DNA of 64,000 nucleotides. Origin: Corallococcus sp. EGB (GTDB lineage Bacteria > Myxococcota > Myxococcia > Myxococcales > Myxococcaceae). How positions within the stretch are numbered: the first letter of the stretch is position 1; each line of letters starts with the position of its first letter. The notes under the pieces were generated by a model. The model searched no databases and was not told the origin of the DNA. It saw nothing but the letters and a program-made list of their open reading frames with translations. The stretch lies in NCBI RefSeq assembly GCF_019968905.1, contig NZ_CP079946.1, positions 5,793,356 through 5,857,355 of the forward strand, read 5' to 3'. Shown piece after piece: positions 1-15,115 of the stretch. The position numbers and the translations under genes are program-made.

Positions 1-526
1 GACCGAGGTGCAGGCGCAGCGGGTCGTCCCGGAGACCGCTCCCGAAGCGGCACCGGCGGACGAGAACCGCGAGCGGGTGCTGCTGTGCCGCGCCGGCGCG
101 GAGGGTCGCGTGGCCATCCCGCTGTCGCGCGTCACGCGGCTGGAGGAGCTGCCCGCGTCGGACGTGGAGCGGCTGAGCGGAGGCATGGAGATGGCGCGCT
201 ACCACGGGCAGTTGCTGCCGCTGGTGCGCGTGGCCTCCGTGCTGGAGGCGAGGCCTGGGGCGACGGAACAGCTCGCGCGGAACGTGAAGCTCGCGCTGGA
301 CGACTCGCTCTCCGTCGTCGTCACCACGCACGCGGAGACGCGCGTGGGACTGGTGGTGGACGCCATCCTCGACGTCGCGGAGGTGGAGCTCGCGCTCCAG
401 CGGGAGACCCGCCGTCCGGGCGTGCTGGGGTCCATGGTGGTGCAGTCCCGCGCCACCGAGTTCCTGGACGTCGAGGGCACCGTTCGCGCCGTGCACCCGG
501 AGCTGCTGATGGGCGGTGCGCCATGA
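1..526 (+). CDS. cheA: Chemotaxis histidine kinase CheA, C-terminal fragment (CheW-like regulatory domain); 5' end lies outside window
   Basis: ORF 8..526 reads through the window start; CheW-like domain sequence ([25 protein letters not shown]...); TGA overlaps cheW ATG (ATGA); followed by cheW-mcp-cheB-cheR. Confidence 0.7.
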
Positions 527-1011
527 AGGGCTTCCACCAGCTGTGCTCGTTCCAGGTGGGCGACCAACTGTTCGGCCTGGACATCGAACGCGTGCAGGAG
601 ATCCTGATGCCGCCTCCGCTGACGCGCGTGCCCGGCGCGCCTCCGGAGGTCGCGGGGCTGCTCAACCTGCGTGGGCAGATCGTCCCCGCCATCGACCTGC
701 GGCGCCGGCTGGGCCTGCCCGAGGGCACGTCCCCCGCGGACGCGCCCCACGTCGTCCTGCGCGGCGACGAGGGCGCGGTGAGCTTCCGCGTGGATGCCAT
801 CGGCGACATCCTCCCCTTCGAGCCGTCGGCCCTGGCTCCGCTGCCGGACAACCTGCGCGGGCCCCTGCGCTCGTTGCTGTTGGGCGTCCATGCGCTGCCG
901 GACCGGCTGCTGCTCGTGTTGTCCGCGGACGCGGTGGTGGACGGGCTCTCGCCCGCATCCAGCGCCTCCGCCGCCCCTTCCTTCCCCTTGCGTTCCCAGG
1001 AGTCCCGCTGA
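523..1011 (+). CDS. cheW: Chemotaxis coupling protein CheW
   Basis: [28 protein letters not shown]... typical CheW domain; ATG at 523 in frame of ORF 85..1011; start overlaps upstream stop and stop overlaps downstream ATG (translational coupling). Confidence 0.85.
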
Positions 1012-3074
1012 TGGCACGCTCGACCGCGCCCGCCGTGAAAACCACCCCCTTCCAACGCCTGGGCGGCAAGGCCCCACTGACCGCCGCCGTGCAGAAGCTC
1101 TACGCGCGGGTGCTGGCGGATGCGCTGCTCAAGCCCCTCTTCCGCCGCGCGGACCTCGTCCAGGTGCAGCGCCGGATGGTCGCGTTCCTCACCCAGCTCC
1201 TGGGCGGTCCGGCCCTCTATCGCGGCCGGTCCCCGCGCGATGTGCACGCCGGCATGGAGCTCAAGCCCCATCACTTCGAGCGCGTCGCCGAGCACCTGGC
1301 CGCCGTGCTGGATGAGCTGGACGTGCCCGGCCCTGTCGCTCGAGAGGTGCTCGCGGCCCTGGGCACGATTCAAGGCGACGCCGTGAGCAAGCGCGCCCCG
1401 GCACGTGCCTCGCGGACGCAGGGGCGCCGCGTGGCCGCGACCCCAGTGCCCGCGGCCCGGTCCTCGCGCCGCCGGACGTCCACGCTGCTCGAGGGGGCGC
1501 TGAGCGAGGCGGTGCTGAACGCGGCGAGCGTCAACCTGTTCGTGCTGGACGAAGACCTGGCCATCCTCTTCTCGAACACGGCCTCCTCGGACGCCATCGA
1601 GCGCATCCATCAGGCGTCTGGTTTCAGCGGCGGCGTCGGGGATGCGGGCAGCGATTTCCTCGCCCACTTCGAGCACCAGCTGAGCCTGGAGGACGAGCGG
1701 CTGCGCGACCCCGAGGCGCTTCCGCACGAAGCCCACTTCGCCGTGGGCCCCACCCTGATCAAGGCGCGCATCGACGGCATCAAGGGCCGCGGCGGAGCGC
1801 TCACCGGATACGTGGCGACGTGGACGGACGTCACGGATCAGCAGCGCGCGGACACGGAGATGGCACGCCTCAGGGCCATGCTGGAGAACGCGCCCACCTG
1901 CGTGATGGTGGCCGACCTGGACCTGAAGATCGTCTACCTGAACCCGGCCTCTCGCCGGCTGTTGCAGCGCGTGGAGAAGCACCTGCCCGTCACCGCGGAC
2001 CGGGTGCTGGGCTCCCACATCGACGTCTTCCACCGCGACTCGACGTACCAGCGGAAGCTCCTGTCCAACGACAAGAACCTGCCGGTGCGCGCCAACATCC
2101 CCATCGGCCCGGAGACCGCGGACCTGTTGGTGACGGCGGTGTACGACGGCCAGGGGCGCTACCTGGGCCCCATGGTGACGTGGGAGCTGATCACCGAGAA
2201 GCTCGCCGTGCAGCAGCGCGAGAAGGACCTGGACTCCACCCTGCGCGGCATCTTCCAGGAGGTGACGCAGCACTCGCAGACGCTCGCGGCGGCGTCCCAG
2301 GAGCTGTCCAGCGTCAGCCAGCAGCTGGTGAGCAACGCGCAGGAGACCGCCGCGCAGGCAACCCAGGTGTCCGCCGGCGCGGAGCAGGTCAGCCGCAACG
2401 TGCAGAGCGTCGCGTCCGGCATGGAGGAGGTCAACGCGAACATCCGCGAGGTGGCACGCAACGCGAGCACCGCCGCCAAGGTCGCGGCCTCCGCGGTCAA
2501 GCTGGCGGACTCCACGTCCGCCGTCGTCGGCAAGCTGGGGGCGAGCAGCCAGGACATCGGCAAGGTCATCAAGGTCATCACCTCCATCGCGCAGCAGACC
2601 AACCTGCTCGCGCTCAACGCGACCATCGAGGCAGCCCGCGCGGGCGAGGCGGGCCGGGGCTTCGCGGTGGTGGCCAACGAGGTGAAGGAGCTGGCGCGCG
2701 AGACGGCCCGCGCCACCGAGGACATCGGCCAGAAGATCGGCAGCATCCAGGGCGACACCGAGGAGGTGGTCAACGCCATCCTCGAAATTGGCGCCACCAT
2801 CAGCCGCATCGACGAGCTGCAGACGTCCATCGCCTCCTCCGTGGAGGAGCAGACGGCCACGGCGGGAGAGATCCTCCGCAACGTGGGCGAGGCCGCCAAG
2901 GGCAGCCAGCAGATCTCCGAGAACATGGCCGCCGTGGCGGAGGCCGCGCGGAGCACCACCGAGGGCGCGGGCAGCACGCAGCGCTCCGCGGTGGAGCTGG
3001 CCCACATGGCGCAGTCGCTTCAGCGGCTGGTCGTGCAGGTGGACACGACAGACAAACAGGGACGGACGAAGTAG
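1011..3074 (+). CDS. Soluble methyl-accepting chemotaxis protein: N-terminal truncated (2/2) haemoglobin domain + two PAS domains + MCP signalling domain
   Basis: N-term [33 protein letters not shown]...[38 protein letters not shown] matches trHb signature (F..LGG, FL..GGP..Y.G, H..HF); no TM segments; C-term highly conserved MCP core [35 protein letters not shown]; ATG 1011 overlaps cheW TGA. Confidence 0.85.
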
Positions 3075-3111
3075 CGCGGGCGGAATCAGGGTCCAGGAGC
3101 CACGGCACGTG

Positions 3112-4638
3112 CGAACCGGATTGAAGCGGTGGTGGGAACTGGGCCAGGTGGCCCGCGCCTCCACGCGCCTGCGGCGGGAAGCCCTGCCCCAGGACGCGGA
3201 GCATGTGAGGCGTGAGCTGACCCGGAGGCTGTTGGGCTTGCGCGGCCTGCCGCAGAAGGTGGGGCAGGTGCTCACGCTCGCGGAGCTGGGCGAGGAGGCG
3301 CCGGGGTTCGGCTCGCTCGCGGAGGCGCCCTCCCCGCTCGCGCCGGAGGCCGCGCTGGCGGAGGTGTCCCGCCGGCTGGGCCGTCCGTGGCGGGAGGTCT
3401 TCGCCTCGCTGGACGGCCTGGGCATCGCCGCGTCGTTGGGGCAGGTGCACCGGGGCGTGCTGCACGACGGGCGCGCCGTGGCGGTGAAGCTGCGGCACCC
3501 GGGCATCGCGGAGGCCGTGCGGGATGATCTGCGCGCGCTGGGGCTGCTCGCCGCGCCGCTGGGTGGCTGGCGCGGGAAGTTGGACCTGTCCGCGTACCGC
3601 CACGAAGTCGCCCGGATGCTCCAGGGCGAGCTGGACTACCGCCTCGAGGCCCAGGCCCTGCGGGATGCGGGCACGCGCATGGCGGACGTGCCGGGCGTCG
3701 TCGTCCCCGCGCCCGTGGACGCGCTCACGCGGGAAGACCTGCTGGTGATGACCTGGGTGGACGGTGTGCCGCTCGCGGAGGGCTGGCGCTGGAGCGAGGC
3801 GGACCGCCGCGCGCTGTCCACGACACTGGTGCGCCTGCTCCTCCACGGCTGCTTCACCTGGGGCGCGCTCCATGCGGATCCGCATCCAGGCAACTACCGC
3901 GTGTCCCGGGGACCGGAGGGCCACGTCGTGCTGGGGGTGCTCGACTTCGGCTGCGTGAAGCCATTGCCGCCAGAGGTGGCCGCGGGCCTGGGGCGGTTGA
4001 TCGCGCTCCTCCGTTGCCCTGATTCCCCACCGCGTCCGGAACAGCTGTTGTCCGCGTGGGTGATGCTGGGGTTCACGCCGGAACTGCTGGAGCCCATGGC
4101 GGAGGCGCTGCCCGCCGTCAGCCGCGTGCTGCTGGAGCCATTCCTCCAGGACCGCCCCTTCCACGCGCGAGGCTGGCGGCTGGGAGCGCGGCTCACCGAG
4201 GCGCTGGGGCCGCACCGCTGGAACTTCCGCGCGGCGGGGCCGGCGTCGCTCCTGTACGTCCTGCGCGCGTTCCACGGGCTGGTGCGCCACCTGGACGTGC
4301 TGGACACGCCCATCGCCTGGGGGCCGCTGCTGGACGAGGCCCGCGCGCCGTCACTGCCACCGCCGCCGTCGCACTCCGAGGCGCGGGTGGAGGGCTCCGC
4401 GCGCTACCTGAAGGTCCGCGTGACGGAGGCCGGCAACACCCGCGTCGCGCTGACCTTCCGCGCGGACGTGACGGCGCACCTGGAGGACCTCCTGCCGGAG
4501 GACTTGCCCTCCCGGCTCGCGGCGCGAGGGCTCGATCCGGCAGGCATTGGCGCGGCGGCGGTCGCGGCGGGGCTGCGGCCGTCGGAGTTGTTCCACCTGG
4601 ACGAGGGCGACCGGCATGTCCGGGTCTGGCTCGAGTGA
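3112..4638 (+). CDS. ABC1/UbiB/ADCK-family atypical protein kinase
   Basis: AVKLRHPGIAEAVRDDLRALGL..., LVMTWVDGVPL, HADPHPGNYRV motifs typical of ABC1 atypical kinase domain; start codon uncertain (GTG 3112 / TTG 3124 / GTG 3151). Confidence 0.7.
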   Translation, partial: RTGLKRWWELGQVARASTRLRREALPQDAEHVRRELTRRLLGLRGLPQKVGQVLTLAELGEEAPGFGSLAEAPSPLAPEAALAEVSRRLGRPWREVFASLDGLGIAASLGQVHRGVLHDGRAVAVKLRHPGIAEAVRDDLRALGLLAAPLGGWRGKLDLSAYRHEVARMLQGELDYRLEAQALRDAGTRMADVPGVVVPAPVDALTREDLLVMTWVDGVPLAEGWRWSEADRRALSTTLVRLLLHGCFTWGALHADPHPGNYRVSRGPEGHVVLGVLDFGCVKPLPPEVAAGLGRLIALLRCPDSPPRPEQLLSAWVMLGFTPELLEPMAEALPAVSRVLLEPFLQDRPFHARGWRLGARLTEALGPHRWNFRAAGPASLLYVLRAFHGLVRHLDVLDTPIAWGPLLDEARAPSLPPPPSHSEARVEGSARYLKVRVTEAGNTRVALTFRADVTAHLEDLLPEDLPSRLAARGLDPAGIGAAAVAAGLRPSELFHLDEGDRHVRVWLE

Positions 4639-4660
4639 CACACGGAGAAGGAAGCTACGG

Positions 4661-4996
4661 ATGGTCACCATCGGCATGAACTATGAGGTGCGTGAGGGCA
4701 AGGCGGACGCCTTCGAGCGGAAGTTCGCGCTCGTGCAGGAGGCGATGCGCAAGCTGCCCGAGCACGCGCACACGGAGCTGTTCCGGAGCGTGGGAGCGCC
4801 AGGGCGCTACCTCATCGTCTCGGAATGGCAAAGCCGCGAGGGCTTCGACGCCTTCATCGCGTCCGAGCCCTTCCACCGCGTGACGGACTGGGGGGCGAGC
4901 GCCATCCTCGCGAGCCGGCCGCGCCACGAGGTGTATGGCGAGTCAGCCGCCAGCGCCCCCACGGGCCGCTGTCCGGTCGCGCACGCGGCGCGGTGA
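4661..4996 (+). CDS. Antibiotic-biosynthesis-monooxygenase (ABM) domain protein
   Basis: MVTIGMNYEVREGKADAFERKF...LIVSEWQSREGFDAFIASEPF - ABM/Dabb ferredoxin-like fold signature; ~111 aa. Confidence 0.7.
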   Translation: MVTIGMNYEVREGKADAFERKFALVQEAMRKLPEHAHTELFRSVGAPGRYLIVSEWQSREGFDAFIASEPFHRVTDWGASAILASRPRHEVYGESAASAPTGRCPVAHAAR

Positions 4997-5007
4997 AGCG
5001 GGTGCGC

Positions 5008-6078
5008 ATGAACGCCATCCGGGTCCTGGTGGTGGACGACGCGGCCGTGGTGCGGCGTCAGGTGTCGCTGCTGCTGGGCACGGACCCGGGCCTGGAGGTC
5101 GTCGCCACCGCGCCCAACGGGCGCATCGCGTTGGCGAAGGTGGAGCAGTTCCAGCCGGACGTGGTGCTGCTGGACCTGGAGATGCCGGAGCTGGACGGGC
5201 TGGAGACGCTCAAGCTCCTGCGCCAGCGCGCCCCGGAGCTGCCGGTGGTGATGTTCAGCGCGCTCACTGAACGCGCGGGCGTGCTGACCCTGGAGGCGCT
5301 CGCGCTGGGCGCACGCGACTACGTGACGAAGCCCACGTCCGCGGGCGGGATGAACGTCACCGTGGAGGCCGTGCGGGACGAGCTGGTGCGCAAGCTCAAG
5401 GCGCTCCACGTCCGCACGCCGCCCTGCGCGCCCATCGTCGCTCCAGTGCCTCGCGAATCCCTGCTCCGGCCACGGGCGCCCGCGCGGGTGGAGGTCATCG
5501 TCATCGGGGCTTCGACCGGAGGCCCGGGCGCGCTGGTGCGCGTGGTGTCCGCGCTGCCCGCGGGCCTGCCGGTGCCAGTGCTCATCGTGCAGCACATGCC
5601 GCCCCTCTTCACGCGGCTGCTCGCGGAGCGGTTGCAGGGCGTCACCCCGCTCACCGTGCGCGAGGCGGTGAGCGGCGCGTCCGTGCGGGCGGGCGAGGTG
5701 TGGGTCGCGCCCGGGGACTTCCACTTGGCCGTCTGCCGGGACGCGACGGGCGTGCGGCTCTTCACGCATCAGGGGCCGGCGGAGAACGCGTGCCGTCCGG
5801 CGGTGGACCTGCTCTTCCGCTCCGCGGCGGAGGTGTACGGCGCGGGAGTGCTCGCGGTGGTGCTCACGGGCATGGGCCAGGACGGGCTGCGCGGCTGCCG
5901 GCGGGTGAACGAGGCGGGCGGTCAGGTGGTGGTGCAGGACCAGGCCAGCTGCGTCATCGGCAGCATGCCGGGCGCGGTGGAGCAGGCGGGGCTCGCGGAC
6001 GCGGTGGTGTCGCTGGACGCGCTGGCCCCGGAGCTGGCGCGGCGCGTGGACGCGCGCGGACGGAGGACCGGAGCATGA
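5008..6078 (+). CDS. cheB: Chemotaxis response regulator protein-glutamate methylesterase CheB
   Basis: N-terminal receiver domain (IRVLVVDDAAVVRR...LLDLEMPELDGLETLK) + methylesterase domain (VIVIGASTGGPGAL, GMGQDG); stop overlaps cheR ATG. Confidence 0.9.
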   Translation: MNAIRVLVVDDAAVVRRQVSLLLGTDPGLEVVATAPNGRIALAKVEQFQPDVVLLDLEMPELDGLETLKLLRQRAPELPVVMFSALTERAGVLTLEALALGARDYVTKPTSAGGMNVTVEAVRDELVRKLKALHVRTPPCAPIVAPVPRESLLRPRAPARVEVIVIGASTGGPGALVRVVSALPAGLPVPVLIVQHMPPLFTRLLAERLQGVTPLTVREAVSGASVRAGEVWVAPGDFHLAVCRDATGVRLFTHQGPAENACRPAVDLLFRSAAEVYGAGVLAVVLTGMGQDGLRGCRRVNEAGGQVVVQDQASCVIGSMPGAVEQAGLADAVVSLDALAPELARRVDARGRRTGA

Positions 6079-6971
6079 CGCTTCATCCCGACGACTTCGC
6101 GTACCTGCGGCAGCGCGTGTTGCGCCGCTCCGGGCTCGTGCTGGAGCCCGACACGCACGCCCTGGTGGAGGCGCGCCTCACGCCCCTCCTGCGCGAGGAG
6201 CGGCTGCCGGACCTGCCCGCCCTCGTGTCGCGTTTGCGCTCGCAGCCCGAGGGCAGCCCGCTCCATCAACGCGTGGCGGAGGCGTTGGCCAACCACGAGA
6301 CGGCCTTCTTCCGAGACACCCCTGTCTTCGAGGCCCTGCGCACCACCGCGCTGCCCGCCCTGCTGGCGAAGCGCGTCCGCACGCGGACCCTGCGCATCTG
6401 GTGCGCGGCGTGCGCCTACGGCCAGGAGCCCTACAGCGTGGCCATGACGCTGGCCGAGGCCGGGCTGCTCATCACCGGCTGGACCGTGCGCATCCTCGCC
6501 ACCGACTTCTCCACCCGCGCGCTCGTGCGTGCCTGCGAGGCCCGCTACGACGCGAAGGAGATCCACCGGGGCCTGCCCTCCGAGCTGCGTCAGCGCTACT
6601 TCCGCCCGGAGCGCGACGGGTGGCGGCTGAACGACCAGGTTCGCAAGCCGGTGGAGTTCCGGCCGCTCAACCTGCTGGACGACTTCTCCATGGAAGCGCC
6701 CATGGACCTCATCTTCCTGCGCAACGTGATGATCTACTGGGACGTGCCCACCCGGCGCGCGGTGCTCGCCCGCGTGCGGCGGATGCTCCACCAGGACGGC
6801 TTCCTGGTGCTGGGCGCCGCGGAGGCCTCGCCCCTGGTGGAGGACGGCTTCACGCGGCACCTGCTGGGACAGACGAGCTGGTACCGCCCCGCGCCCGTCC
6901 CGCCCCATGCCGGCGCGGGCGCCCCCGTGAAGGAAGCGCCGCGCCCTCCGCGCTCCGGCGCTACACCTTGA
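6075..6971 (+). CDS. cheR: Chemotaxis protein methyltransferase CheR
   Basis: ETAFFRDTPVFEAL, RIWCAACAYGQEPYSVAM, DLIFLRNVMIYWD - CheR SAM-dependent MTase motifs. Confidence 0.9.
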   Translation: MTLHPDDFAYLRQRVLRRSGLVLEPDTHALVEARLTPLLREERLPDLPALVSRLRSQPEGSPLHQRVAEALANHETAFFRDTPVFEALRTTALPALLAKRVRTRTLRIWCAACAYGQEPYSVAMTLAEAGLLITGWTVRILATDFSTRALVRACEARYDAKEIHRGLPSELRQRYFRPERDGWRLNDQVRKPVEFRPLNLLDDFSMEAPMDLIFLRNVMIYWDVPTRRAVLARVRRMLHQDGFLVLGAAEASPLVEDGFTRHLLGQTSWYRPAPVPPHAGAGAPVKEAPRPPRSGATP

Positions 6972-7881
6972 GGCGGATGGCGCCGGGGAGCAGCGTCATG
7001 CGGCAGGGCAGCCTGCCCGGCGTCTCACCGTCCACGTCCAGGAACACGTCACCCGTCAAGGGCTCCGCATGGAGCGTGCGGCAGCGCAGCCGCCGCGTGC
7101 CCTTCCAGGTGACGTGGTCGCCGTTGTAGACGCCCTTCGACTTGAGGACGAAGTCGGACAGGCCGTAGTTGGACCAGATGGTGACGTCGAAGAGGCCGTC
7201 GTGCGTCACCGCCTCGGGCGCCACGAACATGCCGCTTCCGAAGTAGCGGCCGTTGGCCACGGCGATCGCGGTGACGCTCACCGTCTCCGGCTCGCCGCCG
7301 TCCACCGTGATGCGCACCTGCTGCTCCTGGTACTTCAAGAGGCCCTTCACGGTGCCCCACATGAAGCTCAGGTTGCCGCCGAGCGCCTTGCTGCCCTGGT
7401 TCACCTCGCGGGCCACCACCGCGCTCACGCCGAACGAGGCGATGTTCGCGAAGAAGCGGGTGGCCGGCTTGCCGTCGTTGTCGGTGAACTCCAGCCGCCC
7501 CACGTCGAAGGGCTCGGTCGTCTCCGAGCGCAGGCGCTCCAGCGCGGACGTCAGCTCCAGGTCCCACCCGAAGGTGCGCCGGAAGTCGCCGCCCGTGCCC
7601 CGGGGCAACAGCCCCAGCGTGGCCTGGGGGTTGATGACCTGGCCGTCGCGGAAGAAGCCGTTGGTGACTTCATTGAGGGTGCCGTCTCCGCCCACCGCGA
7701 CGATGCACTCATAGCCATCGTCGATGGCCTGCCGCGCCAGACGCGCCGCATCCATGCCGCCGCTGGTGAAGCCGTACCCGAAGTCGCCGAGCACCTTGCC
7801 CACCTGCGCGGAGATCTCCACCCATCGCTTCCCCGTCTGCCCGTTGGCGCTGCGCGGGTTGACCACGAGGAACGTCTTCAT
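6961..7881 (-). CDS. Diacylglycerol/lipid kinase catalytic-domain protein (YegS/BmrU family)
   Basis: MKTFLVVNPRSANGQTG...CIVAVGGDGTLNEVTNGF...GLLPRGTGGDF - DAGK_cat signature; 3' end overlaps cheR 3' end convergently by 11 bp. Confidence 0.8.
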   Translation of the reverse strand: MKTFLVVNPRSANGQTGKRWVEISAQVGKVLGDFGYGFTSGGMDAARLARQAIDDGYECIVAVGGDGTLNEVTNGFFRDGQVINPQATLGLLPRGTGGDFRRTFGWDLELTSALERLRSETTEPFDVGRLEFTDNDGKPATRFFANIASFGVSAVVAREVNQGSKALGGNLSFMWGTVKGLLKYQEQQVRITVDGGEPETVSVTAIAVANGRYFGSGMFVAPEAVTHDGLFDVTIWSNYGLSDFVLKSKGVYNGDHVTWKGTRRLRCRTLHAEPLTGDVFLDVDGETPGRLPCRMTLLPGAIRLKV

Positions 7882-7957
7882 TCAGTACCTTCTCCCTGCT
7901 GCGAGAACGGCCTGTTTACGCAATTGTTTGCCGGGGCTCCACTCCAGGACCCACAAG

Positions 7958-8716
7958 ATGACCCGTTTGACCGGGGTGTTTGTCACCCAAACCGGTCCAT
8001 GGTGGGCTTCCCAACCCTCTCCGCGCCCTGGACCCCGAGTGAAAGGCCCGCCCCCCACCGAGCAGCTCGCGCCCCACCGCGAGGCCACCCGCGCCCTGGA
8101 CTGGGCACTGCCCGCGCTCCGGTGGGACCTGGAGGCCGCGGCGCGGCAGGCCTTCCGGGAGACGGGCGCCCAGGAGGACTTCCTGCTCCGCCATGACGCA
8201 CCGGCCCATGAAGCCCAGGGGCCGGCGCGGACGGAGCGCTTCGAGCGGGCCCTCGCCCGGGTCCGGCGCCTCGCGGACGCCGGTGAGCCGCTGACCTTCA
8301 CCGGGATGGTGGAGGTCCAGTCGATGCTGCTGGGCGGTCCCACGGGCTTCCGCACTGGCGACGCCTTCGCGAGGAGTGGCGCGCACCGGTACGCGCACAC
8401 GCCCGGCCTGGAGGCGGCGTTCCGCGAGAAGGTGGAGTCGGAAGCGCGGGAGCAGCGCCATCCGGTGGCGCACGCCACGCGGTTGTACCTGGACCTGTGT
8501 TTCTTCCACCCCTTCCCGGACGGAAACGCCCGAGCGGCGCGGCTGTGGCTGGAATACATGCTGCGGCGGGGCCGCCTGCCCACCCCGCCCCTGGTCCCGG
8601 TGGTCCTGTGGCGCAAGAACCCGGGAGACGCGGTGAACTACACGCGGCTGGCCCGGCTGCTGGCCCGGAGCATCGCGGGGCCTGACGCGCCGTGCCGCAA
8701 CGAGGTGCCGGGATGA
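7958..8716 (+). CDS. Fic/Doc-family protein (putative AMPylating enzyme)
   Basis: Fic core motif FHPFPDGNARAARL (HxFx(D/E)GNxR); start assigned to ATG 7958 (alternatives downstream). Confidence 0.7.
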   Translation: MTRLTGVFVTQTGPWWASQPSPRPGPRVKGPPPTEQLAPHREATRALDWALPALRWDLEAAARQAFRETGAQEDFLLRHDAPAHEAQGPARTERFERALARVRRLADAGEPLTFTGMVEVQSMLLGGPTGFRTGDAFARSGAHRYAHTPGLEAAFREKVESEAREQRHPVAHATRLYLDLCFFHPFPDGNARAARLWLEYMLRRGRLPTPPLVPVVLWRKNPGDAVNYTRLARLLARSIAGPDAPCRNEVPG

Positions 8717-8729
8717 ACGAGGTGACCGC

Positions 8730-9425
8730 ATGAGCAAGGCATCCCTGGGGACCTGGGACCGCATCCGCGACAGCCTGGACGCGTACGACCCGGAGAAGGT
8801 CATCCGCATGCTGCGCGAATATCTGGCGCCGCGTGTGCCGCCGGAGGCGCGCAAGCTCACGGACGAGCAGCACGACGCGATGGCGAAGCACGTCCAGGGG
8901 CTGCTCCGGCAGAACCTGGGGCCCTGGTACACGGACACGAATCTGTCTCTGGGCAATGAGAGCTTCGGAGGCTACTGCTGGTGTCACAGCTTCTTCCGGC
9001 ACAAGCCCCTGCCGGACATGAGCGTGGAACACAACATCCAGCTCATCATCAACGCGCTGGAGCGGTCGCGCGAATGGCTGTTCAAGCTGGATGCCCATTT
9101 CCAGGCGCTGAAACAGGGCCTGCCCTCGGCGCCCGAGGACACGGACATCCGGCTGCTCGCGCTGGCGGATGGCATTGTCACCACGGTGAACCTCACCATG
9201 GACGCCACCGGCTGCGAGGAGGCCTGGTACACCTTCGCGGACGAGGCGATGGCGTGGATGTTCGACGCCATCGGACTGCGCCCGGGCTATCAGGCCGGGA
9301 AGCTGATGCGGAAGCTGTTCGCCTTCGAGTCCTGGCACTCGCCGCTCGAGGGGGAGCTGCGCGACTCGGCGGAGAAGGTGGCGGCCGCCGTCGTGGAGGA
9401 CGAGGGCCGCCGGCACGCGCACTGA
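8730..9425 (+). CDS. Hypothetical protein, co-transcribed 14 bp downstream of fic gene
   Basis: 231-aa ORF with good codon bias and no recognisable motif (GGYCWCHSFFRHKP); tight spacing with Fic gene. Confidence 0.55.
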   Translation: MSKASLGTWDRIRDSLDAYDPEKVIRMLREYLAPRVPPEARKLTDEQHDAMAKHVQGLLRQNLGPWYTDTNLSLGNESFGGYCWCHSFFRHKPLPDMSVEHNIQLIINALERSREWLFKLDAHFQALKQGLPSAPEDTDIRLLALADGIVTTVNLTMDATGCEEAWYTFADEAMAWMFDAIGLRPGYQAGKLMRKLFAFESWHSPLEGELRDSAEKVAAAVVEDEGRRHAH

Positions 9426-9442
9426 GTCCTTGCCCCGTCCTT

Positions 9443-10126
9443 TCAGTGGACGGGCTTGCCGCGCGTCAGCTTGCGGGCTTCGTCGCGCGAGCCACCCTTC
9501 ACCGCGATGCGCTTGCCCTGGGGTTCGGCCTCCGGGAGCTTCAGCGAGATTTCCAGCACGCCGTTCTCGAAGTTCGCCTCGACCGACTCCGTGTCGATGC
9601 CTTCCGGGAGCGGGATGGCGCGGCGGAACGTGCCGGTGCCGCGCTCCAGACTCCAGACGCCCTCGGCCTCCTGTTCCTCCTCCACTTCGAAGGAGCGCTC
9701 GCCTTCAATCACGAGCTGATCGTTCTGCAGCTCGACGTGGATGTCGTCCTGCTTCATGCCGGGCAGGTCGGCCTTGACGATGAGCTGCCCGTTCTTCTCC
9801 AGCACGTCCACCTGGGGTGACCAGAGGCCCTCGTCCAGCACGCTGCTCCGGGGGATGAATCCCCGGCCTCCGAAGCCGATGAAGAGCTGATCCATGTCCT
9901 CCATCATCTGGCGCATGAGCCCGAATGGGGTCAGGGGCATGGCCTCCCGCACGGTGGTGGGTACCTGGGATTCACGGCGGGAGATGCCTGAGCCTGTCCG
10001 GGGCTCCTGGCCTTGTGAGCTTGCGCCCTGCTGTACGTCGGACTGGGCGTTCTTCATCGCGGGCGGAGAGGAGGGCTTCCCCTCCGTCCCCGGGTTCCTG
10101 TTGTCGGCAGCCATGATGTCCTCCAA
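9443..10126 (-). CDS. Hsp20/alpha-crystallin family small heat-shock protein with extended N-terminus
   Basis: ACD motifs: PQVDVLEKNGQLIVKADLPGMKQDDIHVELQNDQLVIEGER...GTFRRAIPLPEGIDTESVEANFENGVLEISLK. Confidence 0.8.
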   Translation of the reverse strand: MEDIMAADNRNPGTEGKPSSPPAMKNAQSDVQQGASSQGQEPRTGSGISRRESQVPTTVREAMPLTPFGLMRQMMEDMDQLFIGFGGRGFIPRSSVLDEGLWSPQVDVLEKNGQLIVKADLPGMKQDDIHVELQNDQLVIEGERSFEVEEEQEAEGVWSLERGTGTFRRAIPLPEGIDTESVEANFENGVLEISLKLPEAEPQGKRIAVKGGSRDEARKLTRGKPVH

Positions 10127-10229
10127 GCGGGGATGGAATCATCCCAATCCCAAACCTGGAGGCGCGAGGGAGGGCCATCAAGGGTCCGGGGCCGCCGGCC
10201 CGCCGTGTCTGTCATTGGCGGGAGCCCCG

Positions 10230-11117
10230 CTACGCGAGCAGCGTGGCGTCCATCACGGTGAGCGCCACCCCGCCGACGCGGGCGCGCTCGACGTGGCCCG
10301 GCTGGCCGGTGACCTGGATGTCGATGCGGCCCGGCTTGCCGAGCGTGTCGCCCTGCTCGATGCGACCGGACACCGTGCCGCCGTGCGCGGGAAGGCGGAG
10401 GATGCCGTGTTCAGCGAGGTAGGCGGCGAGCGGTCCCGCGGCGGAGCCCGTGACGGGGTCCTCCAGGATGCCGAAGCCCGGGACGAAGTAGCGCGCCTGG
10501 GCCACGCTCCCCTGCTCCTTCGCTTCGCGGGCGAAGAGGTAGACGCCGCGCAAGCCGTGCGGCATCAGCAGGGCGTTCATCGCCGCGCCTCGCGGCGTCA
10601 GGGCCTCCAGGTCAGCGAGCCGCCGCAGGGGCACCACCAGCCGGTGGCCCTGGCGGATCACCGGCAGTGACGTGTCCACCTGCGACGCTGTCCCGCCCAG
10701 CGTGGCCATCAGCGCCTCCAACGCCACGGGGTTGGGCAGAGCGGGCGGCGGGGGCGTGGCAATCCACACCCGCGTTTCATGCGCGCTCCGAGGCTCCAAC
10801 TCGATGTCGAAGGTGCCACCGGGGCACTCCAGCTTGAACGTCCCGGGGCTTCGCAGGAGCCCCTTCTCCGCGAGCAGATGGAAGGTGGCGACGGTGGCAT
10901 GGCCGCAGAAGGGAATCTCATCCACGGGCGTGAAGTAGCGCAGGCGCACGGTGGCATCACCGGGCCGGGACAGGAGGAAGGCGGTCTCGGACGCACTGAC
11001 GGCCGCGGCGGCCCGTTGCATCGTGGGGACCTCCAGCGCGGACGCGTCGAGCACCACGCCCGCACGGTTTCCTGCACCGGCGGTGCGGGTGAAGGCATCG
11101 ATGATGTGAACCTGCAT
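10230..11117 (-). CDS. PhzF-family phenazine-biosynthesis-like isomerase
   Basis: MQVHIIDAFTRTAGAGNRAGVV...ETAFLL...FTPVDEIPFCGHATV - PhzF/DAP-epimerase-like fold signature. Confidence 0.85.
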   Translation of the reverse strand: MQVHIIDAFTRTAGAGNRAGVVLDASALEVPTMQRAAAAVSASETAFLLSRPGDATVRLRYFTPVDEIPFCGHATVATFHLLAEKGLLRSPGTFKLECPGGTFDIELEPRSAHETRVWIATPPPPALPNPVALEALMATLGGTASQVDTSLPVIRQGHRLVVPLRRLADLEALTPRGAAMNALLMPHGLRGVYLFAREAKEQGSVAQARYFVPGFGILEDPVTGSAAGPLAAYLAEHGILRLPAHGGTVSGRIEQGDTLGKPGRIDIQVTGQPGHVERARVGGVALTVMDATLLA

Positions 11118-11262
11118 GGGCGGACTCCGAGCGTGAGAAGGGCCTGCGAATCAGGTCCAGGCATGCTCCGCTCTCCCCATCGGGTCAAGCGCCGGGCCGG
11201 CATGCCGGGGGGCCTCACAACAGGGTTGAACAGGAGCGCGCGAGCAGGCACAGCAGAGGGAC

Positions 11263-12039
11263 ATGAGTCTCCTGAAGTCGGTTGGATGGGGGGTGCTGGG
11301 GGCGTTGCTCCACGCGAGCGGCGCGGCGGCACAGATCGTCAACGTGCAGGCGCTCTTCGACGAGAAGGCGGAGCTGGGACCGGCCGCGGCCATCGAGTTG
11401 GGGGGAGACTGGCGCACGGGCAGCACGGAGCTGTTCTCCGTGCGGGGCTCGCTGGTAGGCCAGCTGCGCTCCGAGCGGAACGTCTGGCTGGGCGTCATCC
11501 GGGGCGAGTACTCGTTCGCCAGTGGAGAACGGATCGTCAGCCAGGTGATGGAGCACGTGCGCTACCGGCGCAGGCTCACCGAGCGTGTATCAGCCGAGGC
11601 CTTCGCCCAGCACGAATACAACGAGTTCCGCCGGCTCCAGTTCCGGGCCCTGCTGGGCGCGGGCCCGCGCGTCGTCCTGCTCAACGAGGAGAAAACAGGG
11701 CTCACCCTCGGCGTGGCGCTGATGTTGGAGCACGAGCGGTTGCGCAAGGACGGCGAGGTGGACGCGGGAGACCGCTACACGGATCCCCGAGTCTCCAGCT
11801 ACCTGCTGGGCCGCTTGAAGCTGATGGAGAACATCCACCTCGTGGAGACGGTCTACCTCCAGCCGCGAGTCACCCGCCCCGCCGACCTGCGAATCCTCAA
11901 CGAGACGCTGTTCGCGGTGACTCCCAATCCCCGGGTCACGGTGGGCATCGGCTTCAACCTCACCTACGACAGCGCGCCGCCGGCGACGGTGCCGCCCCTG
12001 GACACGCAGCTGCGGACCACGGTGGGCGTGAAGCTCTGA
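11263..12039 (+). CDS. DUF481-like outer-membrane beta-barrel protein with signal peptide
   Basis: N-terminal signal peptide (LLKSVGWGVLGALLHASGAAAQ); alternating amphipathic beta strands, C-terminal aromatic/hydrophobic end (TTVGVKL). Confidence 0.6.
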   Translation: MSLLKSVGWGVLGALLHASGAAAQIVNVQALFDEKAELGPAAAIELGGDWRTGSTELFSVRGSLVGQLRSERNVWLGVIRGEYSFASGERIVSQVMEHVRYRRRLTERVSAEAFAQHEYNEFRRLQFRALLGAGPRVVLLNEEKTGLTLGVALMLEHERLRKDGEVDAGDRYTDPRVSSYLLGRLKLMENIHLVETVYLQPRVTRPADLRILNETLFAVTPNPRVTVGIGFNLTYDSAPPATVPPLDTQLRTTVGVKL

Positions 12040-13279: not shown

Positions 13280-13479
13280 GGATGCGCGGGCGCATCATCC
13301 GGGTCGGATGTCGGGAGGGACCGCCCCTGGGGCGCATGAGCTGAAAACCTGTCCGACAGTCGGACAGGTTCGAGGTTCGCAGGCTCGGCCATCGTGTGGC
13401 ACAAACGTGTTCGACAAGCAGAGACGTTCGAGGGCTTCGAGCCTCACAGCGGTGATCAGTCGCACGGAGCCGAGTGCCG

Positions 13480-14395
13480 CAATGGATGAACCGCCCTCCA
13501 CGTCGCGCTGTGTGACTGCTTCGTCGGCCTCCTGGACGGCCACCTCGAGTGTGCTGCCGGGGCGGGCCGCCAACTTCGAGAGCAGAGCCTTGACCTTGCT
13601 CCAGCACAGCTTGATGGGATTGAGGTCGGGACAGCAGGAACAGGACGTCTACCCCAACCGAGCGAAGCCTCCTTGACGCAGGTCGCGTGGTGCGCTCCCA
13701 GGTTGTCCATCACCAGGTCGCCCTGGCGTAGGTTGGGGATCAGGTAGTCGTTGCCGGACAGCAGAGGAACACGGCGCCCGACGTGCCGCCTTCAACTGTC
13801 ATCAGGGCCTCGACTCCGTCCTGGGTGAGAGCACCAATCATGGTGAGAACCGTGTCTCGGTTTCTGGGGACGTGGCCCACCACGCGCTTCGACAGGGCGC
13901 AGGCATACTCACGCTCCATGCCGATATGGCTGCCGGACTCGTCGATGAAGACGGGTCGGTCCCCCCAACGGCTTCGGTGGCCGTGAGGAACTCGGCGCGC
14001 TTCTGATGGACGCTCGGACGCTGACGTCCGCTTGCGACCAGCCCCTTCTTCGTTCGAGAGTCACCGAAGTCGCACGATCATCCGGCCCAAGGTGGGGCGG
14101 CTCAGCGAGCGGCCAAGCTTCCTGATCACCAGGACGACCGGCACGGCAACCGTCGCGTCTGGATTCGCGTCCACCAGCGCCTTCACCCGAGGTAACTCCT
14201 CGTCAGACACGCGCTTGAGCACGCCCGCCAGGAGGCCGCGGCTGCACATCGCCTGTCTCGCGCTTCAGCCGGAGGACCCGGTTCACCGTGGCCCGGCCTA
14301 CGCGGGACTGCTCCGCCAATTCCTCGTACGCCCTGTGCCGCGCTCCTCGCGAATGCGTCGACGCAAGTCCTCGGAGATCGGCCGGATCATCGCCT
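13480..14395 (-). pseudogene. IS630-family transposase, frameshifted/truncated
   Basis: Minus-strand translation gives MIRPISEDLRRRIREERG... (HTH), ...LVMDNLGAHHATCVKEA..., ...DLNPIKLCWSKVKALLSKLAARPG... in at least three different frames. Confidence 0.6.
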
Positions 14396-14447
14396 GAGCA
14401 GCTAATGCCAACCGGCTCGGCTCAAGAGAGCCCCGCTGTCAGGCGGT

Positions 14448-14830
14448 GCAAACCAGTCCGACACTCCTTCAAGTTCGCGTTCTTGGGTCTCAGCCTGCAA
14501 TGACCAGTCCGACAGTCAGACACGTTCATGCCCCGGGCCCTGGCCGCGCAAACCTGTCCGACTGTCCTACACGTTCGCGGGCTTGGGTCTCAGCCCGCGA
14601 CGACCTGTCCGGCAGTCGGACACGTTCATGCCCCGGGTCCTGGCCGCGCAAACCTGTCTGACTGTCCTACAAATTCGCCGGCTTGGGGTTCAGGCTGCGA
14701 TGACCTGTCCGACTGTCGGACACGTTCCTGGCCTCGGGCCCTTGGCCGCCCAAACCTGTCCGACTGTCCTACAAGTTCGCGGGCCTGGGAGACTCGCGAC
14801 AGGGACTTGTCCGACTGTCGGACAGGTTTC
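14448..14830. repeat. ~100-bp tandem direct repeat (~3.8 copies), each copy carrying GTCCGACWGTC half-palindromes
   Basis: Units ...aaaccWgtccgacWgtcctacaMRttcgcgggcYtggg...gacctgtccgRcagtcRgacacgttcMtgSCc... repeated head-to-tail; last unit ends in the full palindrome. Confidence 0.75.
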
Positions 14831-15115
14831 TGAAGAACGCGCCCGGCGGGCGGCCCTGACCGCCATCCCCCGCGTCCCGCGCAATCATGCCGCTTGGGCC
14901 CACTGCGTCTTGCTTCGGGACGTACGGTTCCACGGAGGCCTTGGAACAGTGCGCCTCGTGAGCGCATCTGTCGCGATCTCATCCTGACGCCCCGCTCATG
15001 CTCTCCATCACCATTCGCTGCTGCGCTCAGCGCGGCTTGCATCCTTGCGAAGAGCGCAACGTCCTGGACTCCGTTGGTGGGCTCCTGGCGGCGTGCTTGA
15101 GGGTAGGATTCTGGC

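Follow-up and report, generated by a model that had tools for sequence, protein, structure and literature searches.

The chemosensory cluster Cc-5/ECSS4 of Corallococcus coralloides DSM 2259 was described in silico by Sharma, Parales & Singer (2018; BMC Genomics 19:757, PMC6194562) and consists of the proteins WP_014397683-89. The cluster encodes a cytoplasmic receptor with the domains Bac_globin+PAS+MCPsignal, and CheY is absent nearby (PMC6194562). The cluster was reported in one myxobacterium only, and ABC1 or ABM was reported in no related cluster of any lineage (PMC6194562). Both ABC1 and ABM were considered to have been added after the horizontal acquisition of the che genes and were proposed to help ubiquinone synthesis (PMC6194562). 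The window analysed in this work is a stretch of 64,000 nucleotides from Corallococcus sp. EGB (NZ_CP079946.1, positions 5,793,356 to 5,857,355). Positions 1-6971 of the window hold seven genes, all on the + strand, which are the 3' end of cheA, cheW, mcp (methyl-accepting chemotaxis protein, MCP), the gene of an ABC1/UbiB-type kinase (K hereafter), abm, cheB, and cheR (Table 1).

This locus is the Corallococcus copy of Cc-5/ECSS4. A preliminary description of the window had regarded the kinase and ABM within a che pathway as a new combination, but the combination, the domains, and the O2/quinone speculation were already published in 2018 for the congener (PMC6194562). No paper on UbiB/ABC1 with chemosensory systems or Aer2 was found in the literature besides the 2018 paper. 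What appears to be new is that Aer2-like haem chemosensory systems of several phyla have a conserved partner in the UbiB-type K, which has a C-terminal domain of its own. We consider it probable that the cluster is an old haem-based cytoplasmic che cassette in which K would act as a dedicated ATPase component of an O2/redox pathway.

Distribution of the kinase and its chemosensory cassettes

K of the window is 100% identical to the Corallococcus sp. EGB protein. Orthologues that are 82-89% identical were identified in at least ten named Corallococcus species, among them C. exercitus, C. carmarthensis, C. macrosporus, C. caeni, C. exiguus, C. coralloides, C. interemptor, C. aberystwythensis, and C. 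terminator, and in several unnamed strains. Each of these named species has both K and ABM orthologues. The clusters of K at 88% identity or above include C. coralloides, C. exiguus, and other Corallococcus entries. The published statement that the cluster exists in one myxobacterium is outdated because of these orthologues across Corallococcus species. Beyond Corallococcus, the best K matches fall to 49% identity or less, and close K orthologues among myxobacteria were found only in Corallococcus. All seven genes recur, again followed by the convergent DAGK gene, in L087 from Corallococcus sp. ZKHCc1 1396, the sole further Corallococcus locus examined. The region to the left of the window was inferred from this orthologous locus, where the full-length CheA consists of Hpt, H-kinase_dim, HATPase_c, and CheW domains and the receiver domain is absent.

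Homologous cassettes outside Corallococcus were identified first by context look-ups of K homologues at 43-48% identity. Locus L082 has the gene order CheA-CheW-MCP(Bac_globin+PAS+MCPsignal)-ABC1-ABM-CheY-CheB-CheR. Locus L151 has the order CheW-MCP(Bac_globin+PAS)-ABC1-ABM-CheY-CheB-CheR-Rieske, and locus L081 has the order ABC1-ABM-CheY-CheB-CheR. Locus L093 shares the gene order of these three loci. All seven proteins of the window are 42-60% identical to their counterparts in L082 and L151, and this uniform identity is what descent en bloc predicts. Locus L001, from an Opitutaceae metagenome-assembled genome, has the order CheY-CheA-MCP-CheW-trHb-x-HemA-ABC1-CheY-CheB-CheR, where trHb is a truncated haemoglobin. 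The region between cheW and K in this locus (L001:7499-9996, JANQKI010000237) holds a stand-alone trHb gene (Bac_globin 1e-24), a 249-aa open reading frame (ORF) without Pfam match, and the gene of HemA, glutamyl-tRNA reductase (GlutR_N 3e-41). A haem-biosynthesis gene is thus located inside a chemosensory operon.

Metagenome contigs were searched with an alignment of the subfamily-specific C-terminal half of K, and the 62 further loci that were retrieved were mapped by tblastn with the window proteins. The informative loci (n = 54) were those with a flank of 1.5 kb or more, and CheA, CheW, MCP, CheR, or full-length CheB were counted as core che proteins. A core che gene is located within 3 kb of K in 40 of the 54 informative loci, which is a rough proportion, and a receiver-domain gene is found in 8 more. 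A scan of the genome collection with the full-length K alignment served as the control; it picked generic UbiB motifs, so that 78 of its 80 loci were ordinary UbiB and Corallococcus contributed none. CheA, CheW, MCP, or CheR was found near the generic UbiB genes in none of these loci (0/78). Both flanks of K are available for 36 loci, and in 21 of these an immediate neighbour is a receiver-domain gene; K comes directly after MCP in about 15 loci.

The neighbour-joining tree of K exhibits clades that match the types of gene order, in which A, W, M, R, B, and Y denote CheA, CheW, MCP, CheR, CheB, and CheY and REC denotes a receiver domain. These types are W-M-R-A-REC-K, A-W-M-K-(ABM)-(Y)-B-R, and A-W-M-Y-B-R-K or K divergent from cheA. 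The K proteins of the window and L087 are sister to those of the K-ABM-Y-B-R loci. Since the clades of K coincide with the types of che gene order, K has co-diversified with the che cluster.

The named bins among the K homologues include Nitrospiria, Acidobacteriota (Acidiferrales, Vicinamibacterales, and Thermoanaerobaculia), Gemmatimonadota, Phycisphaerae, and Opitutaceae. Krumholzibacteriota and Hydrogenedentes are found among the ABM homologues. The phyla that have K in a predicted O2-sensing cassette include Acidobacteriota, Nitrospirota, Verrucomicrobiota, Planctomycetota, Gemmatimonadota, and Myxococcota. The cassette looks acquired in Corallococcus because its nearest relatives are in non-myxobacterial metagenome bins. 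The K-ABM pair appears to predate this transfer, which is apparently unreported before.

Judged from these distributions, K is an old co-inherited component of the pathway that was not inserted late. The published claims that no related cluster contains ABC1 or ABM and that the two genes are a late addition are contradicted by the homologous cassettes elsewhere, and the published evolutionary account of a unique cluster with two late additions is corrected accordingly. The preliminary description had treated both genes as integral to the cluster. This view is upheld, since orthologues across Corallococcus and cassettes in other phyla speak against both absence from related clusters and recent insertion. 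In the comparison of synteny across the myxobacteria, which was also suggested, the full cluster recurs in L087, and no other myxobacteria yielded close K orthologues. The suggestion that such embedded genes are a hallmark of myxobacterial systems with alternative functions is misleading, as the nearest relatives outside Corallococcus are from non-myxobacterial metagenome bins. The che cluster of this non-flagellated host includes genes that are not che genes.

A decayed cassette was also observed on a 5.4-Mb contig of Candidatus Acidiferrales (L085/L086), where the kinase is intact while the che genes erode. The remnants are CheA (HATPase_c and CheW only), CheW, a 102-aa C-terminus of MCP, and fragments of CheB-REC and CheR.

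Properties of the kinase, the ABM protein, and the receptor

The assignments of the two non-che proteins to ABC1 (PF03109) and ABM (PF03992) in the preliminary description are real. Their hidden Markov model scores are above the gathering cutoffs, at 158.1 bits for K (cutoff 22.9) and 54.3 bits for ABM (cutoff 23.1). The UbiB core of K spans aa 1-411 and is followed by a disordered linker (aa 412-432). The core contains the KxGQ motif (K50-Q53), the AAS loop, the catalytic K127, the ExD motif (E174/D176), the HxD..N motif (D257/N262), and the DFG motif (279-281). The residues K50, G52, Q53, A108, S109, K127, E174, D176, D257, N262, D279, and G281 are invariant in 32 subfamily members. The meaning of these motifs is drawn from the COQ8 literature; in COQ8, the KxGQ extension occludes the protein-substrate groove. 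The C-terminal domain of K consists of about 76 aa with the predicted order beta-beta-alpha-alpha-alpha-beta-beta and ends with ...VRVWLE.

Profile matches of K to UbiB/COQ8-type structures have E values from 1e-51 to 1e-57 at 21-29% identity. The AlphaFold2 model of K has a predicted local distance difference test (pLDDT) score of 84.8. The model superposes on COQ8A (4ped, E 2.2e-16, TM 0.76 on target) and also on Rv3197/MABP-1 and MSMEG_1954, the Foldseek E values ranging from 2e-16 to 1e-13. K is below the cutoff of the UbiB equivalog TIGR01982 (119.6 bits, cutoff 487.55) and of PRK04750 (82.3 bits, cutoff 667). No membrane segment was found in K by hydropathy, where the maximum over 19 residues is 1.21. 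A canonical UbiB/ubiquinone role was rejected for K on its equivalog scores, its solubility, and its che-gene context.

The profile of the C-terminal half of K has 824 representatives among 1.84 billion cluster representatives, of which 359 are found at E <= 1e-30, and nearly all are about 510 aa in length. From its motifs, predicted fold, and length, K is a small, uniform, and distinct subfamily of predicted soluble UbiB/ABC1 proteins with an intact ATP-site signature and a private C-terminal domain. One metagenome protein of 590 aa, P0201, has a CheA-like Hpt fused to K without the N-lobe, in which the C-lobe and the C-terminal domain are kept. The kinase part of P0201 is 40% identical to aa 151-509 of the window K. 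P0201 was set aside as a Rosetta-stone fusion because the whole N-lobe is missing and there is a single representative, which is probably degenerate or chimeric; even so, it is a further link of K to the phosphorelay.

The ABM subfamily exhibits the conserved N-terminus M-[VI]-T-[VI]-G-M-N-Y-E-V, which is MVTIGMNYEV in the window. The window ABM also has the C-terminal Cys-Pro tail G-R-C104-P-V-A-H108 (nt 4970-4984). The tail G-x-C-P-x-x-H is found in 45 of the 72 ABM homologues (P0121-P0192), including che-linked ones. Two forms of ABM were observed, which are a tail-less form of about 94-98 aa and a form of about 106-116 aa with the tail. Tailed ABM is also found outside che clusters, as in L152, where an alternative oxidase gene is located about 2.6 kb downstream. 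Tail-less ABM in L153 adjoins a B12-binding radical SAM gene. The tail is loosely reminiscent of Cys-Pro haem-regulatory motifs.

The best PDB matches of ABM are an unnamed oxygenase (9vah, 8e-7) followed by MhuD/HmoB (about 3e-4). ABM scores 19.7 bits against the HmuQ equivalog, whose cutoff is 130. The catalytic triad of MhuD is N7, W66, and H75, and its Asn is offset by one residue in the ABM alignment. ABM as an IsdG-type haem oxygenase was rejected because the Trp and His positions are unconserved and the scores are under cutoff. ABM was found in nine of the K metagenome loci, seven of which are distinct. By this distribution, ABM is an optional accessory of one branch of K, which is the branch that includes Corallococcus.

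The receptor starts with a group-I truncated haemoglobin at MCP aa 12-118 (PDB trHbN 3aq5, E 2e-18; M. tuberculosis HbN, E 1e-14). The globin alignment appears gapless, the aligned ranges being equal in length, and it places Tyr31 at B10 and His79 at F8 by the HbN numbering. MCP aa 282-407 correspond to an Aer2-type haem-PAS (P. aeruginosa Aer2 3VOL/4HI4, E 4e-15), in which the E-eta His ('IDVFH') and the I-beta Trp of Aer2 are both kept. In the PAS of the PaAer2 type, the E-eta His ligates haem and the I-beta Trp stabilises O2 (PMC10107281). The best NCBIfam model over MCP aa 163-414 is Vibrio Aer2 (E 5.7e-56). A transmembrane-strength hydrophobic segment was not found in MCP by hydropathy, and solubility is predicted for K, MCP, and ABM alike.

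The receptor is very probably haem-based, as the preliminary description had suggested, with TyrB10/HisF8 in the globin and the haem His and Trp in the Aer2-type PAS. A probable second Aer2-like PAS was observed at MCP aa ~163-281 (window 1497-1853), upstream of the PAS detected by Pfam. Its 'WTDVT' matches the I-beta Trp and the DxT motif, and 'LAHFEH' is located at the expected place of the haem His. The receptor may carry three haem sites, which are trHb, PAS1, and PAS2. An Aer2-like PAS is found in nearly every K-linked MCP that is complete enough to judge, and trHb, either fused or as a separate gene, is found alongside about half of the K-linked MCPs judged.

Proposed roles and competing explanations

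In the explanation that we favour, the truncated-globin/PAS receptor would bind O2 (or NO/CO, or would report redox state) and set the activity of CheA, and CheB and CheR would give adaptation. K would be a ligand-gated ATPase dedicated to the pathway, not an enzyme of ubiquinone biosynthesis and probably not a protein kinase. Docking would likely be through its C-terminal domain, with the receptor array or the receiver domain of the neighbouring CheY/CheB as the partner. Two placements of K are conceivable. As a co-sensor, K would feed a further signal into the pathway, which could be ATP status or a hydrophobic redox cofactor, for example quinone or haem. As an output component, K would be an effector controlled by CheY~P. 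ABM would most likely bind haem or quinol in support of the receptor. The lead towards haem comes from the multi-haem receptor, the haem-type matches of ABM, its Cys-Pro tail, and hemA with free trHb in the Opitutaceae cluster. A broader reading, which we hold only tentatively, is that K represents a previously unrecognised multi-phylum family of Che-pathway ATPases of several hundred 50%-identity clusters, co-evolved with Aer2-like haem-PAS systems and acting as effectors or array-bound co-sensors.

Several points weigh against this explanation. The results are from comparative genomics, and the metagenome loci were retrieved by a kinase motif from contigs that are often short, which makes the sampling and the percentages rough. 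Neither the adjacency of MCP and K nor that of a receiver domain and K is universal. No structural relative and no recognisable receiver-binding fold were found for the C-terminal domain of K, and its docking is a guess for that reason. The sequence fits an input-side and an output-side role of K alike. No receiver gene was found in the annotated part of the next ~18 kb downstream of the cluster. For ABM, the best NCBIfam models are 'heme-binding protein' (C-terminal ABM domain, 2e-10) and HmuQ (7.6e-4), both matched far below cutoff, and the phmmer alignment places Phe65 and Glu69 at the catalytic Trp66 and His75 of MhuD. Close relatives of ABM are also located away from che genes, and ABM cannot be essential to the action of K because most K-containing clusters are without ABM. 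The 2026 aerotaxis review still treats the cluster as an in silico prediction only.

Between abm and cheB, Corallococcus is without the CheY gene that its nearest relatives have in the order K-ABM-CheY-CheB-CheR. There is no remnant of cheY, because abm and cheB overlap or sit 11 nt apart. Corallococcus appears to be a CheY-less derivative, which is apparently unreported before. It could signal by cross-talk, either with another of its che systems or with the PAS-GerE regulator encoded upstream. The gene of this regulator (PAS_4/PAS_9 and GerE, LuxR-type helix-turn-helix) is co-directional and located just upstream of cheA in L087 (L087:4202-5092). The 2018 account is silent on this gene, whose product could regulate the CheY-less system of Corallococcus or serve as its output. 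Downstream of cheR in L082 (L082:9718-13852), a 547-aa protein without assignment, a receiver-GAF-guanylate cyclase, and an EAL protein are encoded. Downstream of cheR in L085 (L085:12420-15707), HDOD-HD, a response regulator, CheX, and EAL-HDOD are encoded. This hints at second-messenger turnover as the usual output of this cluster type.

The competing explanation that survives best overlaps with the favoured one. It proposes that the receiver of CheY~P or CheB binds the C-terminal domain of K and switches an ATPase or small-molecule kinase activity. The most frequent immediate neighbour of K is indeed a receiver-domain gene (K-Y, K-abm-Y, K-CheB, or REC-K; 21/36 loci), and K stands beside single-domain response regulators and CheX, with no adjacent MCP/CheA, in L083 and L002. 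M. xanthus CheY7-Cpc7 provides a precedent (Darnell 2014, as cited in PMC11514114). However, the loss of CheY in Corallococcus would orphan such an effector, and the C-terminal domain exhibits no recognisable receiver-binding fold. The loci with K directly behind MCP also speak against a pure output role, and so do the other candidate outputs (guanylate cyclase, EAL, and HD/HDOD) downstream in L082 and L085. We regard this explanation as somewhat unlikely.

ABM, with or without K, could instead load, sense, or degrade the haem of the receptor, whose occupancy would follow the haem/O2 status of the cell. A receptor with two or three predicted haem sites is consistent with this role, and so are the Cys-Pro-x-x-His tail in 45/72 homologues and hemA with free trHb between cheW and K in the Opitutaceae cluster. 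The best named matches of ABM are haem-binding or haem-degrading ABM proteins, although they are under the curated cutoffs and the Trp and His of IsdG/MhuD align to Phe65 and Glu69. Most K clusters are without ABM, and the same ABM subfamily exists outside che clusters. The likeness of the tail to haem-regulatory motifs is tentative. We regard haem maintenance as unlikely.

In a metabolic role, ABC1 and ABM would assist ubiquinone biosynthesis or aerobic respiration as monooxygenase-type proteins, would be co-expressed with aerotaxis, and would have no contact with signalling proteins. UbiB proper has C-terminal membrane helices, and myxobacteria use menaquinone MK-8, not ubiquinone, which counts against this role. 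K is without the transmembrane segments of UbiB proper, has its private C-terminal domain, and is far below the UbiB equivalog cutoffs. ABC1 belongs to the UbiB/COQ8 family, some ABM proteins are quinol monooxygenases (PMC6194562), and co-expression alone suffices for operon membership. However, no ubi or menaquinone genes are nearby in the annotated neighbourhoods of the window and L087. A housekeeping helper would also not be expected to co-diversify with che gene order across phyla or to adjoin CheY/CheX genes where MCP is absent. A metabolic role is thus quite improbable.

That K and abm are unrelated passengers, brought into the operon by chance or by past insertion, is hardly credible and is refuted by synteny, for K at least: the 2018 paper reported ABC1/ABM in no related cluster (PMC6194562), but the same order is found in L082, L081, L151, and L093, the divergence of all seven proteins matches, the che association is 40/54 compared with 0/78, and K co-diversifies with the cluster type.

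If the broader reading of K as a family of Che-pathway ATPases is true, K would add a new class to the accessory proteins of Che systems. It would also be the first member of the UbiB family with a place in a defined signalling circuit and would provide a handle on UbiB biochemistry. The cassette would offer a soluble bacterial entry to two questions, which are the biochemistry of UbiB/COQ8-type kinases and what Aer2-type haem systems control. The CheY-less Corallococcus version is the one available in cultured strains.

Gene layout and comparison with described systems

The G+C content of the window is about 72%, which fills raw ORF lists with spurious frames. Genes were called from the periodicity of G+C at third codon positions (GC3), with one + strand frame per segment, from inspection of starts and stops, and from Pfam. 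The features are shown in Table 1.

Table 1. Features of the che cluster at positions 1-6971 of the window and of the adjoining convergent gene.
Feature	Position	Strand	Description
cheA 3' end	2..526	+	P5/CheW-like domain, Pfam CheW E 5e-11; gene continues past the left edge of the window
cheW	523..1011	+	162 aa; Pfam CheW E 1.7e-30
mcp	1011..3074	+	687 aa, predicted soluble; Bac_globin 3e-17, PAS, MCPsignal 3e-32 (Pfam)
MCP signalling domain	MCP aa 484-645	+	Pfam
mcp-kinase spacer	3075..3108	+	34 nt, AGGAG ribosome-binding site
ABC1/UbiB-type kinase (K)	3109..4638	+	GTG start, 509 aa; PF03109 E 2.8e-46
K C-terminal domain, subfamily-specific	4405..4632	+	aa 433-508
ABM	4661..4996	+	ATG start, 111 aa; PF03992 E 1.5e-14
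cheB	4993 (GTG) or 5008 (ATG)..6078	+	Response_reg + CheB_methylest, 3e-60 (Pfam)
cheR	6075..6971	+	298 aa; CheR 1.5e-51, CheR_N 2e-8 (Pfam)
DAGK/YegS-type lipid kinase gene	6961..7881	-	Pfam DAGK_cat + YegS_C; convergent, outside the che system

The seven genes look like one operon. Their co-directional arrangement in the preliminary description was confirmed by GC3, start/stop inspection, and Pfam, and the genes overlap or are at most 34 nt apart. The ATGA overlaps that had been described are found at the cheA/cheW and cheB/cheR junctions, and the cheW/mcp junction is instead a 1-nt overlap, TGATG. The spacer between the kinase gene and abm is 22 nt with the ribosome-binding site GGAGAAGGA. 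The ABM/cheB junction is a GTGA overlap, or an 11-nt gap if cheB starts at ATG 5008; the cheB of the L087 orthologue is annotated 11 nt past the ABM stop. A single transcript, as had been suggested, is supported by the layout, with no promoter or terminator consensus between the genes: a scan of positions 1-8000 found no sigma-70-like promoter or + strand terminator-like site. The DAGK/YegS gene overlaps the 3' end of cheR by 11 nt (6961-6971) and marks the 3' boundary of the operon. No terminator-like structure was detected on either strand in this overlap.

Beyond the operon, window 7724-12036 encodes a Fic-domain protein, a 231-aa protein without assignment, HSP20 (- strand), a PhzF-like isomerase (- strand), and DUF481. 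L087 likewise has the Fic gene and two unassigned genes beside the cluster, followed by a DDE transposase fragment. Window 13300-15100 is a segment of about 1.8 kb with a G+C content of 0.65-0.66 between a GntR-family gene and a gene similar to P5C reductase (pyrroline-5-carboxylate reductase). No ORF with a strong GC3 signature, no Pfam match on the longest ORFs, and no Rfam/tRNA match were found in this segment.

The findings in this work can be compared with five groups of described systems. ABM shares its fold and size with IsdG, MhuD, and HmuQ, its best named matches being MhuD (~3e-4) and HmuQ (7.6e-4). It differs from them in the unconserved catalytic Trp and axial His, in scores that are under the cutoffs, and in its own Cys-Pro-x-x-His tail. 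K shares with UbiB/COQ8 (ADCK3) and the mycobacterial Rv3197 (MABP-1) and MSMEG_1954 the predicted fold, the KxGQ motif, the Ala-rich loop, the ExD motif, the catalytic Lys/Asp/Asn, and the DFG motif. However, K is only 21-29% identical to these proteins, has no membrane anchor, and has an extra C-terminal alpha/beta domain. The context of K is chemosensory and not quinone biosynthesis or drug resistance.

The window cluster resembles Che7 of M. xanthus in that both are myxobacterial, encode a soluble receptor, and include non-che genes among the che genes. The non-che gene des7 of Che7 encodes a desaturase. The accessory proteins of the two clusters are unrelated (desaturase and HEAT compared with UbiB-type and ABM), Che7 keeps its own CheY, and the window cassette does not appear to be of myxobacterial origin. 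The accessory HEAT-repeat protein Cpc7 within the Che7 cluster is a signalling partner that is bound by CheY7 (PMC11514114).

The Aer2/F7 systems, which include Che2 of P. aeruginosa and the Aer2 systems of V. cholerae and V. vulnificus, also have a soluble haem-b PAS receptor inside a complete cheA/W/B/R cluster. The window receptor differs in the addition of an N-terminal truncated haemoglobin, and Pfam finds no HAMP repeats in it. The C-terminal x-[HFYW]-x2-[HFYW] pentapeptide tether is a fundamental feature of the Aer2 type (PMC7184735), whereas the window receptor is without this aromatic pentapeptide and ends with ...DKQGRTK. The window cluster is without cheD and has the UbiB-type kinase and ABM, which are undescribed for F7 clusters.

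The closest system is Cc-5/ECSS4, which was described from C. coralloides DSM 2259, another strain than that of the window. Both clusters belong to the same genus, both receptors share the architecture Bac_globin+PAS+MCPsignal without a transmembrane segment, both have no CheY nearby, and the K orthologues that are 82-89% identical include that of C. coralloides.

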